From positions 1-64,000 of the IMG/VR virus record IMGVR_UViG_3300021425_002093: a DNA stretch of 64,000 nt; one strand, given 5' to 3'. Position 1 is the stretch's first letter; each line of letters begins with the position of its first letter. This document shows, one piece after another, positions 12,388-58,547 of the stretch. The position numbers and the translations under genes are program-made. The DNA is from a virus. The notes below the pieces were generated by a model. That model was not told where the DNA came from, made no database searches, and saw only the letters and a program-made list of their open reading frames with translations.

Positions 12388-12465
12388 TGGCCTCCCGAGT
12401 AGGACTCGAACCTACAACCTACAGCTTAGAAGGCTGTTGCACTATCCGAATTGTGCTATCGGGAG
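12388..12465 (-). tRNA. tRNA-Arg(UCU)
   Basis: CTCCCGA/TCGGGAG acceptor stem; ACAGC-CTTCTAA-GCTGT anticodon arm; GGTTCGAGTCC; encoded CCA. Confidence 0.95.
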
Positions 12466-13954: not shown

Positions 13955-14239
13955 TTACTTAGACTCTACAAATTCGTAAAGTTCTTTTGCTCTGCGATTG
14001 ATTTGATCGCTCGTAGGCATGGTTGGAATTGCAGCTAATAGATCATTTGCAACGATCTTTAATGCATCAGCGGCTTCTTTTGCTTCTTTTGGATAGACAC
14101 CAATCTGACCAATCTTCTCTTCAAACTGATTGAATAGTGCCCAGAATGAATTCATAAGAACCTCATACTGTTGCATCTCAAGATCACGAGCCATTTGTAG
14201 TACATCGAACCGAAGTTCGTAAGGGGTTTTGTTTGGCAT
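13955..14239 (-). CDS. conserved T4-like hypothetical protein
   Basis: KTPYELRFDVLQMARD...AKELYEFV; GGAGG RBS. Confidence 0.8.
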   Translation of the reverse strand: MPNKTPYELRFDVLQMARDLEMQQYEVLMNSFWALFNQFEEKIGQIGVYPKEAKEAADALKIVANDLLAAIPTMPTSDQINRRAKELYEFVESK

Positions 14240-14264
14240 AATAGCCTCCTGTGTGTTGTGTGTG

Positions 14265-14596
14265 TAGTGGTCCGTTGGGTAACAAGGTGGACCAAACCCC
14301 GCAGAGCTTAAGCCGCTAGTGCGACATCTCCGTAGTAATCGTCATTTGCTGCGATTATTTTTTTGAACCCTGTTTTTACAGACGGCGTTCATCGTCTGAT
14401 CCTCAGTATTGCTTTTGGTCGTCCGTCGAATCTATAACGCCCCCATCAGATAAACACTGTGTCGGATTTCCACCCACATACCCGGCGGCCGGGATCTTGA
14501 TCGTAGACTAAAATGACTACTCTTTAGATCAACAGTGTTCATCTGGTGGAGGCGAGGGGATTTGCACCCCTGTCCGCACTTCCTAATGACAACACG
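14265..14596 (-). ncRNA. ssrA: two-piece (circularly permuted) tmRNA
   Basis: Acceptor piece GGACAGGGGTGCAAATCCCCTCGCCTCCACCA ends at 14544; coding piece starts GGGGGCG...GATTCGAC at 14444 (G3-U70, A73); tag frame (A)ANDDYYGDVALAA* at 14352-14308 after AAAAAAATAATC. Outer ends approximate. Confidence 0.93.
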
Positions 14597-14671
14597 TCAT
14601 CGAATACTAAAGTACATGGTGACTTCAAAGCCAGCACGTACATCAATTGCTTTAGGTTTTGTCCACTTCAT
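14597..14671 (-). CDS. pqqA: pyrroloquinoline quinone precursor peptide PqqA
   Basis: MKWTKPKAIDVRAGFEVTMYFSIR*, 24 aa; WTKP...GFEVTMY with the E-x3-Y core; TAAGGAGGT RBS. Confidence 0.92.
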   Translation of the reverse strand: MKWTKPKAIDVRAGFEVTMYFSIR

Positions 14672-15140: not shown

Positions 15141-15217
15141 TGGCTCCCGAGGTAGGATTCGAACCTACGACATGCAAATTAACAGTTTGCCGCTACTACC
15201 AACTGAGCTACTCGGGA
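15141..15217 (-). tRNA. tRNA-Asn(GUU)
   Basis: TCCCGAG/CTCGGGA stem; GCAAA-CTGTTAA-TTTGC; GGTTCGAATCC; CCA. Confidence 0.95.
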
Positions 15218-16100: not shown

Positions 16101-16175
16101 TGGTGCCGCCACCAAGAATCGAACTTGGTTCTGAGGTTTACAAGACCCCTGCATCACCATTTATGCTTTGGCGGC
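16101..16175 (-). tRNA. tRNA-Thr(UGU)
   Basis: GCCGCCA/TGGCGGC stem; GGGGT-CTTGTAA-ACCTC; GTTCGATTC; ACCA. Confidence 0.93.
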
Positions 16176-30080: not shown

Positions 30081-30317
30081 AAGTGAGTAAATCCATATTG
30101 AACGTAATATTTATATTTTAGTACTCGCATGTTTTTCTAGCAAGAACTCAATATATGCATCTAATTGCTCGAACTTAATGAGATCCATATCTAAAGCTTC
30201 TAGCGCTTTTGCTTCCGCCTCTTCTCTGGTCATCACAAACTCCTTTTATATAAATAAAGTTGTAGTCCACGGAACGGCCATTCCCGACTACTCTAATACT
30301 GTAAAGGAGTATCAGCT

Positions 30318-30833
30318 ATGTCTATTTATGACCCCATCTCAGAAGCGCTAGGACTTGATCCTATCGACTTCGATTACGAACCCATGCCTAAAGCTATCAG
30401 TCTGTCTGAAGCGTATATTGGGGAACTCAATTCATTCTACGGTAAGACACACACAGAAGAACTAAAGTATCACTGGTCGCAAACTCGTCAAGGCAAAAAC
30501 AATGGTATGTATGGACGAAGTGTTGTTGCCGAAAAAAACTTGCGATGGTATAACAACGGTAAAGAAAACATCTATGTTACTGAAGGCACTCAGCCAAAAA
30601 GATATGTACCGGGTAGATGTAATCTAAAGCGTAAGCCACATTCAAAAGAGACTAAGCAAAGAATATCAAACTCTATGAAAGGAAACACTAGCAATAAAAC
30701 TCGTCAGCGTTCCGTTCTGTCTCCTCGTGGTAAATTGTATCCATCTATAAAAGAAGCGGCAAAGTCATGTGGACTAACCATTTCTCAGTTTAGATATAGA
30801 AAGATTAAAAACGGTAACTGGGTTATCCAGTAA
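30318..30833 (+). CDS. NUMOD3/NUMOD1 homing-endonuclease-like DNA-binding protein, no nuclease domain seen
   Basis: NSFYGKTHTEE, NGMYG, WYNNG, HSKETKQRIS, YPSIKEAAK; plus-strand TATAAATA at 30249-30256; AAGGAG RBS. Confidence 0.8.
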   Translation: MSIYDPISEALGLDPIDFDYEPMPKAISLSEAYIGELNSFYGKTHTEELKYHWSQTRQGKNNGMYGRSVVAEKNLRWYNNGKENIYVTEGTQPKRYVPGRCNLKRKPHSKETKQRISNSMKGNTSNKTRQRSVLSPRGKLYPSIKEAAKSCGLTISQFRYRKIKNGNWVIQ

Positions 30834-55150: not shown

Positions 55151-55867
55151 TTAAAAAGGATTCTTTTTCTTTGAGTCAGGCGCTAACGAGTATTTACTGC
55201 TAGGCATTGACGTAATTTTTAATTCCGCTTGAACTTCGTAAAACTGCGAACGAGTTGCAATTCTTACTTTAAAGTCACCGCTACCTTTTAGCAAGGGAAC
55301 AGCACTAGGCACTTTAAATGGATTTTTACTCGATATCCGATAAAAATCATCTGCGGCTTGCATATAATATGCAGGCTCAGCTTTACCTACAGTGTAATGC
55401 TTTGTAATTAAAGACGCCATATCATAGTTTTTCATCTCTGCTATATAGCGATTGATTCCAGGCTGTGCAAAGTATGCTTTCATTATATGAAGAGGAACAG
55501 CGCCTTCTTCTTTTAGTCCGCCTTTTGTAGTAGGTATCTTTATTTGTTTTAAGGGTATACCAGTAAACTTAGACAAATCTTTAAGAAACTTCTTTGTCTT
55601 AGGATCATCGTTAAGAATATCAACTGCTTCTTTCGCAGCGGGGGTAGTGTAAGTAGTATCCCACTTTCCATTTTTATAGAATACTCTAGGATTAGATAGA
55701 TTGTCGGTGTGATTCATCTTGACTTCAAGCCAAGTCTTTGTGACCCCCTTTTGTAGCAATACGTCTGAGTACTGAGTGCCCACAGTAGGCCGACTAGCTC
55801 TTATGCCAGAAATAGAGTTTGCAGATTCTGCTATCATTTTTTCGAATCTATCAGACGCAGCGCTCAT
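55151..55867 (-). CDS. hypothetical protein, possible PD-(D/E)xK nuclease
   Basis: FE...SDVLL...WLEVKM; late promoter at 55893-55900. Confidence 0.65.
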   Translation of the reverse strand: MSAASDRFEKMIAESANSISGIRASRPTVGTQYSDVLLQKGVTKTWLEVKMNHTDNLSNPRVFYKNGKWDTTYTTPAAKEAVDILNDDPKTKKFLKDLSKFTGIPLKQIKIPTTKGGLKEEGAVPLHIMKAYFAQPGINRYIAEMKNYDMASLITKHYTVGKAEPAYYMQAADDFYRISSKNPFKVPSAVPLLKGSGDFKVRIATRSQFYEVQAELKITSMPSSKYSLAPDSKKKNPF

Positions 55868-55945
55868 GACTATCCCTTAAATAGTATTATAATATTTATA
55901 AAATCCAGAATATAAGCCATTGAAAAATCAATTTGTATAAATAGT

Positions 55946-56106
55946 GTCAGGGTGCGTGTTCATACGGTATTCGTAAGAGGCAAGTGTGTAGAGTAATTAT
56001 TACCCAATCACATAGGAATAGCAGGTGTAGCATTTTAAATGCCAGTGGGGTTCTGGCCTGCCACGTAGTCTGATTTATAAGAGGGGGCATTGCGCCCCCT
56101 TTTTTT
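55946..56106 (+). ncRNA. candidate late-expressed ncRNA with its own promoter and terminator
   Basis: TATAAATA at 55936-55943; closing helix GTCAGGGTGCGTG/CACGTAGTCTGAT; terminator AGGGGGC...GCCCCCT followed by a T run. Confidence 0.7.
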
Positions 56107-57487
56107 ATGTGAAATTCGAAAAGTCTGGCTTCGAGTTTTTCGCTTTGAGTGTCGCTACATTGTTAGACTTAGGTGCTTGAGCAGAGTCATCCATCACAGC
56201 ACTTTGAGCATCCTCATCAGCATCAAAAAGTTTCATCTTAGATCGATCAATGCCGACAACGAATCTCTTCTTGTAGTTTGGATCTCCCCAGCGATTTTTC
56301 AATTGCTTGATCATCACCAGATTAGACTCTTCTAGTTGCTCTGTCGATACTACGCCAAACATGAAGTCAGCAGTCGCTGGAAGTCCAAAAGACTCAGAGG
56401 TATCTTCAAGCCCAATATCAGAGTTAGAGTATCCGCTCCTTGTAGTCTGTGTCGCAGACATAATTGGAACATTAAACTCGACAGCAAGCCCTCTCAATTC
56501 TTCAGCAATTGCCTTAACAATTGTATATGAGTTTGCGCTTGCATTCTTCACACGAGAACTTGTACATATATTCAGATAGTCAATGTAAATAACATCTGGA
56601 GTGAAGTTCTTTTTCAGTTTCAACTCGTTTAACAAATGTCGAAAGTGTCCAGATCCAGCGCTTGCTGTTGGATACTCTTTGACAATCAACTTACCTGTAG
56701 TCTTTTCTTTGACTCGTTGCACCTTCTTAAGATAGACATCTTTAGGCATTTCTCTCAGAGTGTCCATCGTAACGTCAAGTAGATTCGCATCGATCCGCTC
56801 AGCGATGCGTTCTTCAGCCATCTCCATCGTGATATACAGAACATTTAATCCAGAGAGAAGATTAGCAGATGCACAGTGAGTCATAAACAAAGTTTTACCC
56901 ACACCTGTTCCAGCAAGAATCACGCTGAGAGATTTACGAGAAAGTCCACCCTTCGTGATCTTGTTCATCAGATCTATGTCGAATGGGATCTTGTCTTCTT
57001 TCGTGTGATAAAAGCGATATCGATCTTCGTAAAGCTCCAGAAAGTCGTGTCCAACATTCTGATCAAACGAGACGCCAAGGGCGTCACTCAGCAATTGTGG
57101 AATCGCACCCTTGTCTAGAGTCTTGTGTTGATTGTCTAGTACAAGGATGGATTCACGGACTGCATTATAGATGGCCTTGTCTTGACAGAACTTTTCAGTT
57201 TTATCTACTAGCCAGTCGAGATCTGTCTGATCATCATAACTCAACTCATTGATCATATCAACAGCAGAAGAAAAGGAATCTTCCGTCAGAGTTGTTTTCT
57301 CTTCAAGATTGATTCGCAATGCTTCTTTTGTTGGTATGCCATTGTAGTCTTCGATGTAAGACATAATAGCGCTGTAAACAGTCTTCTCAGTAAGATCAAA
57401 AAAGTAAGATTCACTTAGAAAAGGTGCAACTCTTCGCATGTATTCTTCATTGTGAAGTAGTGACGCAAGAATTGTGTTTTCAATCAT
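56105..57487 (-). CDS. gp41: replicative helicase (T4 gp41)
   Basis: AGTGVGKT, TMEMAEERI, KEYPT, IDYLN, SATQT, SESFGLPATAD, QLKNR. Confidence 0.97.
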   Translation of the reverse strand: MIENTILASLLHNEEYMRRVAPFLSESYFFDLTEKTVYSAIMSYIEDYNGIPTKEALRINLEEKTTLTEDSFSSAVDMINELSYDDQTDLDWLVDKTEKFCQDKAIYNAVRESILVLDNQHKTLDKGAIPQLLSDALGVSFDQNVGHDFLELYEDRYRFYHTKEDKIPFDIDLMNKITKGGLSRKSLSVILAGTGVGKTLFMTHCASANLLSGLNVLYITMEMAEERIAERIDANLLDVTMDTLREMPKDVYLKKVQRVKEKTTGKLIVKEYPTASAGSGHFRHLLNELKLKKNFTPDVIYIDYLNICTSSRVKNASANSYTIVKAIAEELRGLAVEFNVPIMSATQTTRSGYSNSDIGLEDTSESFGLPATADFMFGVVSTEQLEESNLVMIKQLKNRWGDPNYKKRFVVGIDRSKMKLFDADEDAQSAVMDDSAQAPKSNNVATLKAKNSKPDFSNFT

Positions 57488-58547
57488 CTAGATTAGCCTC
57501 TTCATAATCTTCTGGTTCGTCTACCACAAGTGAACGTGTGGCGATTTGATATCTGTCACTAATATACTCTTGAAAGCGCTTGCTTGTCAAGATGGGAAGC
57601 CAAAAATCTTTTGTATCAGTATCTTTTGCTCGATACTTCTTATCTTCGACTTCACCTGTTTCTGGATCGACTTTTGAGTACCAACCCATGCTAGGTTTAA
57701 CGACAAAGCCACCTTCTGTTGCAAGATCGAGTAATCCAGACCACTTGTTGATTCCAGCATCAAATCGAGCATTGAATGGGAACTTGGATTTCTCACGAAC
57801 AAAGCGTGACTTCTCAATGTTGATAGTGAAGTTATAACCCATCAACTCTTTCCCGTCTTTGTCTTGGGCTTTTGTAATTACAAATACTTGATTTGCACTA
57901 TACATGCCTCCAGTACCACCGGACATGATTGCTTTAGAATAAAGCTCCATTGTCTGATAAGTGTGATTGACAGCAACACAAGGAATGTCTTTTGTAGTCA
58001 AGTGTGGCGTTACAATTCGCCAGAGTGATTTCATCACTTTTGCACGAGACATATCAGCAACAGACTTTCCGTCCAAAGCATCTTCCACTTCTTTCTTAGA
58101 AGCAAGATTGCCTACAGAGTCAACAAAGATAATTACTTTGTCGCCACGCTCTATTTCTTCTAGTCTCTTTGAAATGTCAAACTTCAGTTGCTCAAGATGT
58201 TCAATTGGAATATGAAGCACTCTACTAGTGTCAATCCCGTTTGACTCGATATAGTCTGGTGTAATACCAAACTCTGAATCGTAAAACAAACACACAGCAT
58301 CTTCATGTTTCTTCATGTATGCCTTAACAAGCATTAGTCCGAGCAAAGATTTAAAGCTCTTTGATTCCCCAGCAAGAAACGTTAGTCCAGGCGTTAAGCC
58401 GCCGTCTAACCGTCCACTCAAAGCAACATTAATGATTGGAATTTCAGTTGGTATACTATCCTTCACATTAAAAAATGTAGACTTATTTAATATCGAAGTG
58501 TGTTTTATGGCTCCAGATTTCTGAAGCTTTTCTAGTAGTGATGACAT
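57480..58547 (-). CDS. uvsX: UvsX RecA-like recombinase
   Basis: NVALSG...GGL, AGESKSFKS, YDSEFG, DSVGNLASKKE, NHTY, EKSRFVREK. Confidence 0.96.
   Translation of the reverse strand: MSSLLEKLQKSGAIKHTSILNKSTFFNVKDSIPTEIPIINVALSGRLDGGLTPGLTFLAGESKSFKSLLGLMLVKAYMKKHEDAVCLFYDSEFGITPDYIESNGIDTSRVLHIPIEHLEQLKFDISKRLEEIERGDKVIIFVDSVGNLASKKEVEDALDGKSVADMSRAKVMKSLWRIVTPHLTTKDIPCVAVNHTYQTMELYSKAIMSGGTGGMYSANQVFVITKAQDKDGKELMGYNFTINIEKSRFVREKSKFPFNARFDAGINKWSGLLDLATEGGFVVKPSMGWYSKVDPETGEVEDKKYRAKDTDTKDFWLPILTSKRFQEYISDRYQIATRSLVVDEPEDYEEANLDD

Follow-up and report, generated by a model that had tools for sequence, protein, structure and literature searches.

Orphan structured RNA motifs of phages and metagenomes have been described (Weinberg et al. 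2010, PMC2864571), and a 2023 catalogue lists 8,495 unnamed candidate structured RNAs from IMG/VR (PMC10690425). The RNA gene reported here resembles the orphan motifs in that it comes from comparative genomics of uncultured viral sequence, has a covariation-supported fold and stands alone as a gene. Unlike them, it matches no family in Rfam 15, those of the 2010 set included, and here the promoter class, the terminator, the fixed genomic position and a six-helix architecture are defined in addition. The pRNA of the Bacillus phage phi29, a structural part of a machine, is likewise a phage-encoded, stand-alone, multi-helix RNA of ∼120-170 nt, but it oligomerizes through two mutually complementary loops, and we found no complementary loop pair of this type in our RNA, from which the complement of the conserved UGGGGUU loop is absent. 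We know of no T4-type packaging motor that uses RNA. Like T4 RNAs C and D and the phage tRNA and tmRNA genes, our RNA is a non-coding RNA of T4-like phages, but the covariance models that describe it (R1 and R2) match nothing in T4, and unlike the tRNA genes it lies outside the tRNA cluster and contains no tRNA-like feature detected by ARAGORN. ToxI-like type III antitoxins consist of tandem direct repeats beside an endoribonuclease toxin gene, whereas this RNA is present in a single copy per genome, no tandem repeats are seen in the unit on reading its sequence, and its neighbors are gp41 and small ORFs of unknown function. Nor does it have a long hairpin with a central bubble, as 6S RNA does. 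The first-pass annotation had suggested that the RNA might be a decoy or antitoxin mimic, bind RNA polymerase or be packaged; as judged from the sequence, its anatomy does not fit the ToxI, 6S or phi29 pRNA models.

The window analysed here covers the leading 64 kb of an IMG/VR virus record of 143.9 kb, from a T4-like myovirus with genes on the minus strand. The locus is anchored by gp41, the DnaB-like replicative helicase (56105-57487, minus strand), whose nearest cultured relatives are 57-61% identical and belong to Stenotrophomonas phage DLP_6 and cyanomyoviruses; the gene for UvsX (57480-58547) lies beside it. On the other side is p238 (55151-55867, minus strand), a 238-aa protein without a family, for which we found no match in Pfam or PHROG, and a DUF6267 protein is also encoded nearby. 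The RNA gene (55936-56107, plus strand) comprises a late promoter, a ∼125-nt core with six helices and an intrinsic terminator, and fills the 237-nt gap between p238 and gp41, both of which are on the minus strand. At least 54 relatives of p238 with 54-95% identity are present in IMG/VR (loci L001-L054), and the interval between gp41 and p238 is hyperplastic across relatives, ranging from ∼60 to >1,500 nt with differing small ORFs. Elsewhere, the window encodes a permuted (two-piece) tmRNA (14217-14636, minus strand; Rfam RF04321, 89.9 bits), whose tag peptide, AANDDYYGDVALAA, we take to be alphaproteobacterial in appearance, and minus-strand tRNAs for Arg(TCT), Asn(GTT) and Thr(TGT) at 12388-12465, 15141-15217 and 16101-16175, all with an encoded CCA. 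tRNAs are present in four of five carrier contigs, and one more carrier of the RNA family, the record behind L119, has a permuted tmRNA like that of the window.

The RNA gene is headed by the T4-type late promoter TATAAATA at 55936-55943 on the plus strand, with a predicted transcript start at ∼55949-55951. As the first-pass annotation had reported, a divergent copy of the same octamer is present on the minus strand at 55893-55900; it is the late promoter of p238 and lies outside the RNA gene. The window has 13 copies of the octamer where 3.0 are expected, two of them on the plus strand and 11 on the minus strand. The second plus-strand copy, at 30249, precedes a 171-aa plus-strand ORF (30249-30833) with a good ribosome-binding site, running against the gene flow; by eye its product resembles a homing endonuclease, so that it looks like an inserted mobile gene. 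Because that copy drives an ORF, the RNA gene is the window's only ORF-free unit behind a plus-strand TATAAATA. Among distinct relatives with enough upstream sequence, 60 of 61 have the octamer 5-8 nt before a conserved 5' GGGUGCG. This GGG belongs to the outermost helix, P1, and the spacing indicates that the transcript begins at the structured core. In sequence, the unit has the layout of T4-type late transcription, with the box ∼6 nt before the predicted start.

Additional promoter-like elements are found at some copies. Thirteen members, mostly of one subfamily, have a TTGACA -35 box (5-6/6 match) 15-19 nt upstream of TATAAATA, and in that subfamily (L082, L085, L086, L098, L103, L132 and others) the box is perfect and lies 15 nt upstream. 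No such box was found at 27 other TATAAATA sites in the genome, and the window's RNA copy is without one. The TTGACA-bearing copies may also be read by host sigma-70 polymerase, which would make the promoter a dual early and late one. Elsewhere in the family the RNA strand carries TGTCAA, which for the divergent neighbor gene reads as a TTGACA -35 box. The window itself contains a sigma-70-like promoter (ATGACT-16-TATAAT, 10/12 match; 55866-55893, plus strand) ∼45 nt upstream of the late promoter that could give an early, longer transcript; this match is not conserved among relatives.

At its other end, the gene has an intrinsic terminator (56079-56107, plus strand) made of a hairpin at 56079-56103 with 10 pairs, six of them G-C, and the loop AUUGC, followed by a T run reaching into the gp41 stop codon at 56105. 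The terminator scan thus recovered the hairpin and T run, convergent with gp41, that had been recognized by eye in the earlier annotation. A strict terminator search was passed by 56 of 63 relatives, with imperfect hairpins visible by eye in the remainder, and the terminators of the relatives occupy the same place with different stem sequences. The linker between P1 and the terminator is 10-17 nt long and offers no alternative pairing. Between the two ends there is no credible ORF, as first suggested for the window alone: of the 63 distinct relatives, at most 40% keep any given reading frame open.

The minimum free energy fold of the window RNA (-53.3 kcal/mol, z = -2.75) has closed ends with hairpins inside. 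In P1, the 5' strand GUCAGG-G-UGCGUG (55946-55958; family core GGGUGCGUG) pairs with the 3' strand CACGUA-G-UCUGAU (56062-56074), which bears out the proposed pairing of the ends as GUCAGG/UCUGAU and UGCGUG/CACGUA. All of the internal stems proposed earlier are likewise in this fold, as UACG/CGUA (P2), UGUG/CACA (P3), GCAGGU/GCCUGC (P4) and GCAU/AUGC (P5), together with a sixth helix, P6 (CAG/CUG), that had been overlooked. The P2 hairpin (55963-55975) has the loop GUAUU, is paired in 100% of the 63 distinct members and alternates between UACGU/ACGUA and UGUGU/ACACA across the family. It is followed by J2/3, an invariant purine-rich strand (AGAGGCAAG, 55976-55984) containing the pentad AGGCA, by the P3 hairpin (55985-56012), which varies in length and is missing in L006, and by the near-invariant J3/4 (UAGGAAUA(G), 56013-56020) with the pentad AGGAA. 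P4 (56021-56061) encloses and closes a three-way junction of the P5 (56030-56042) and P6 (56043-56055) hairpins, and all P4-P6 pairs show double compensatory changes. P6 has only 3 bp and displays the invariant loop UGGGGUU (56046-56052). The ∼125-nt core is thus a four-way junction of P1-P4 in which J2/3 and J3/4 (AGGAAUAG) border the variable P3, with the family consensus GGUGCGUG/CACGYAYC for P1, A-GAGGCAAGU for J2/3 and AnAGGAAUAG for J3/4. The helices covary, whereas the invariant nucleotides are the unpaired residues of the junctions and loop. The invariance of J2/3, J3/4 and the P6 loop is partly ascertained because the search patterns demanded those elements, but GGCA (J2/3), GGAA (J3/4) and the UGGGGUU loop are retained in all 14 members found via gp41 alone.

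Relatives were collected from IMG/VR in several ways. A search for an exact 17-mer taken from the most conspicuous unpaired segment gave 24 contigs. In 23 of these the element is complete, with TATAAATA upstream and a terminator whose sequence differs between copies, and a looser three-block pattern gave at least 119 loci. We then used R1, a covariance model made from 16 sequences and a hand-drawn structure. With it, 100 loci yielded 96 matches (63 distinct), the other pattern loci added 18, and a contig of a bacterial metagenome-assembled genome (MAG) added one; in total R1 covers 129 loci, with 63 distinct sequences in one alignment. To avoid the bias of pattern-based collection, 80 loci were picked purely for a gp41 relative. 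The RNA was found within 2.5 kb downstream of gp41 in 14 of 79 new loci of this kind, and these carriers include about eight of the 10 closest relatives with enough downstream sequence.

Across the 63 distinct sequences, standard pairs fill 95.1% of cells, compared with 22-51% when the partners are slid by 1-3 columns. Changes on both sides are seen in 28 of 30 base pairs, and none of 500 shuffles equaled any of the observed measures. Because the R1 alignment had been fitted to the model, we also aligned 23 diverse members with MAFFT alone and ran RNAalifold on the result, which gave the same six helices with compensatory changes in 21 of 26 pairs. Structural conservation, whose absence the first-pass annotation had named as one outcome that would speak against the gene, is borne out by compensatory changes across the family and a fold far beyond chance. 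The ratio of G-U to A-C combinations across the family is 109:6, which identifies the TATAAATA strand as the RNA strand and shows that selection acts on one RNA strand and not on the DNA. With a family-wide promoter, terminator and covarying fold, the proposal of a dedicated RNA gene, free of ORFs and bounded by a late promoter and a terminator of its own, is strongly supported: it is an independent RNA gene of a previously undescribed family.

The position of the gene is fixed. Wherever gp41 is within reach, which is the case in 125 carrier loci, the RNA follows it on the downstream side, at a median distance of ∼230-280 nt, and the neighbors on the promoter side vary freely. A 62-66-aa ORF with a weak match to phrog_29065 (function unknown) usually lies between gp41 and the RNA terminator (for example, L008 1561-1761, plus strand). 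We considered this ORF as an obligatory partner and rejected it because it is missing from the window, L067 and L076. The orientation relative to gp41 is convergent (antisense), as in the window, in 113 loci and the same as that of gp41 in 12. The original description of the gene as antisense to the genome flow thus applies to the window and to 113 of 125 relatives, but is not a defining feature of the family. Its occurrence in either orientation downstream of gp41 indicates that the gene is an independent transcription unit and not a cis element of gp41. In the sense-oriented variants P5 is replaced by an A-rich bulge, and in one of them P3 is also missing; they retain P1, P2, NGGCA, NGGAAUAG and CGG-UGGGGUU-CCG, and their P1 is fully compensated, for example as GCAGCAUU/AAUGCUGC. 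Because the sense copies keep the fold, the unit is autonomous, and the antisense orientation is common but non-essential.

The carriers are more than 100 uncultured aquatic phage contigs. A blastn search with representatives of three subfamilies found no real match among 50,697 cultured-phage records. R1 found no true match in T4, KVP40, S-PM2, P-SSM2, HTVC008M or Stenotrophomonas phage DLP_6, whereas the positive controls matched, and the broader model R2 found none in T4, S-PM2, P-SSM2, HTVC008M or DLP_6 (KVP40 was left out); marginal matches of 15-16 bits in S-PM2 and P-SSM2 were rejected as they lie inside unrelated coding sequences. When 185,579 genomes of bacteria and archaea (596 Gb) were scanned with a pattern, 27 matches appeared, only one of which, L204, passes the model, and no cellular homologue was found in this pattern-based scan. 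L204 is a 7.6-kb contig (CAYFFH010000143.1) binned in an 'uncultured Enterobacteriaceae' MAG; its ORFs match gp41 and UvsX in size and order, and it has a divergent copy of the RNA in the sense orientation. It is most likely a mis-binned phage contig.

Searches of Rfam agree with the earlier statement that the RNA belongs to no known family. A cmscan of the whole window at Rfam gathering thresholds reported only the tmRNA and three tRNAs, all elsewhere, and a check of three members, the window copy and two divergent relatives, against Rfam 15 at E <= 10 gave only sub-threshold matches driven by the terminator. None of these relaxed matches recurs in all three members; sraA and Bp1_162 appear in two each. 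We found no paper describing the RNA family, and the 2023 catalogue of unnamed IMG/VR candidates may hold the family or part of it among its DNAVirus_N entries. The family has no relative in any known class.

What might such an RNA do? In the mechanism that we infer, the late transcription machinery, with a gp55-type sigma factor reading TATAAATA, would start the RNA ∼6 nt downstream of the box. The start would fall at the 5' strand of P1, and the intrinsic terminator would stop the RNA ∼160 nt on. The rigid P4-P6 arm would then present the invariant UGGGGUU loop, and the folded shape would act in trans late in infection, as a dock or decoy for a partner that may be a protein or a tRNA-like RNA. 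The placement of the invariant nucleotides in the junctions and one loop, with helices that are free to covary, argues for a trans-acting, shape-specific RNA, and we consider that a docking or decoy RNA of this kind, made late, is probably what the gene encodes. Roles as a messenger, cis-regulator, long antisense RNA or DNA element seem unlikely to us.

The same exposed residues could instead be used for base pairing. As a small regulatory RNA (sRNA), the molecule would use the G-rich UGGGGUU loop and J2/3 as seeds for C/U-rich sites in host mRNAs or stable RNAs, with the remainder of the fold merely presenting these seeds; the invariant residues are indeed exposed in the loop and junctions, and sRNA genes usually have this layout of a stand-alone unit ending in a terminator hairpin. 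However, complements of the invariant elements in the phage's 144-kb genome are at or below expectation, and the duplex energies with E. coli 16S, 23S and 5S rRNA and three tRNAs do not surpass those of shuffled segments (|z| about 2 or less). The conserved parts share no k-mers with these RNAs (none of 9 or longer with the rRNAs); E. coli may not be the host. With E. coli rRNA as the reference, no antisense match to 23S or 16S rRNA was found, and rRNA antisense and rRNA or tRNA mimicry were rejected after nothing was found against the E. coli RNAs. Furthermore, six covarying helices and two invariant junction strands exceed what a seed presenter needs, and we regard a base-pairing role as unlikely.

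A multi-helix junction with invariant unpaired purines is also typical of riboswitch aptamers and small ribozymes, and the RNA might be an orphan aptamer sponge or a ribozyme, with the junction as its pocket or active site. This is less likely still. Nothing regulated lies downstream, the RNA running into the end of gp41 in 113 loci; the linker of 10-17 nt between P1 and the terminator offers no competing pairing; and no Rfam riboswitch or ribozyme matched at E = 10. A riboswitch or other cis-regulatory leader in particular was rejected because the RNA and gp41 converge in 113 of 125 copies and no expression platform overlaps the core.

The strictly conserved place directly after gp41, and the fact that the window hairpin also follows the gp41 stop codon, could be explained if the element were a cis module of the replication cluster, that is, a bidirectional terminator or insulator, a source of late antisense RNA into gp41, or a DNA element or origin. 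We consider this very improbable. The minus-strand side of the window hairpin is without a U run, the strong terminator prevents read-through into gp41, the fold survives inversion to the sense orientation, the excess of G-U over A-C reflects selection on one RNA strand and not on DNA, and 125 nt of covarying structure would be unnecessary for a terminator alone. Finally, a small protein is scarcely credible: a 29-aa plus-strand and a 47-aa minus-strand ORF do cross the region in the window, and AAGAGG followed by GUG resembles a ribosome-binding site and start codon, but the conserved blocks are separated by indels of lengths not divisible by three, neither strand has a frame open in more than 25 of the 63 members, and the substitutions are pairwise compensatory and not synonymous. 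AAGAGG was also rejected as a Shine-Dalgarno-like motif in its own right because the sense-class variants do not retain it.

For the trans-acting docking or decoy RNA, one candidate structure can be drawn from known tRNA-binding RNAs. Interdigitated double T-loops combine two T-loops of five nucleotides each, in which positions 1, 2 and 5 are conserved, one of the form AG..A and the other UG..A (PMC3664808). In our family the antisense class always has the pentads AGGCA and AGGAA, and UGGCA, CGGCA, UGGAA and CGGAA appear in the sense-class variants; position 1 is only A or U and rarely C, positions 2 and 5 are invariant, and AG follows each pentad. At the level of primary sequence only, the pentads are compatible with the double T-loop signature. 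As in class A RNase P, where AGAAA and UGAAA flank P12 (RF00010 consensus), they flank a variable hairpin, so that J2/3 and J3/4 around P3 would be the counterparts of J11/12 and J12/13 around P12. The likeness has clear limits. Covariance models show no similarity to RNase P or T-box RNAs at E <= 10 (RF00010 and RF00011 were the RNase P test families, and E. coli rnpB as the positive control scored 318 bits), the junctions are ∼10 and ∼10 nt long compared with 12 and 7 nt in RNase P, and most members have AG..A twice where double T-loops have AG..A plus UG..A. The relation to RNase P and T-box RNAs is thus a resemblance in sequence and topology, not membership.

Two more specific parallels with tRNA-binding RNAs were discarded, which leaves the weaker analogy of the NGGNA junction strands with T-loops. 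GUAAGAG, GCAAG and GGGGUUC were considered as copies of the RNase P S-domain, but in the RF00010 consensus GUAAGAG is a hairpin loop, and its U is not conserved in the RNA family. Pairing of the UGGGGUU loop with the 3' NCCA ends of tRNAs was rejected as well: position 73 of the phage tRNAs and tmRNA is G or A, which leaves just 3 bp (UGG:CCA) for pairing with the loop.

If J2/3 and J3/4 did interlock around P3, AGGCA and AGGAA would intercalate into each other and form a flat platform able to stack on the elbow of tRNAs, at their G19:C56 platform, or of tmRNA. A late, free-standing tRNA-docking RNA might hold tRNAs back, shield them or act as their chaperone, for instance in the face of host defences that target tRNAs or of signalling by uncharged tRNAs. 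We offer this double T-loop device as a doubtful, analogy-based version of the docking RNA. Were it true, the RNA would be the fourth natural double T-loop device, after RNase P, the T-box and the L1 stalk, and the first viral one, as well as the first stand-alone viral RNA that recognizes the tRNA elbow.

That phages encode small structured RNAs is not new; the new part is the family itself. T4-like phages rank with the best-studied of all viruses and with those most abundant in water, and this six-helix RNA is still without a database family. The gene is short and its ends are defined, so that in vitro transcription and the probing of structure and of tRNA or protein binding can be done without a cultured host. 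RNAs with such conserved, tertiary-type architecture usually prove to be ribozymes, riboswitches or ribonucleoprotein cores, which makes the family a concrete target for a new phage RNA function.
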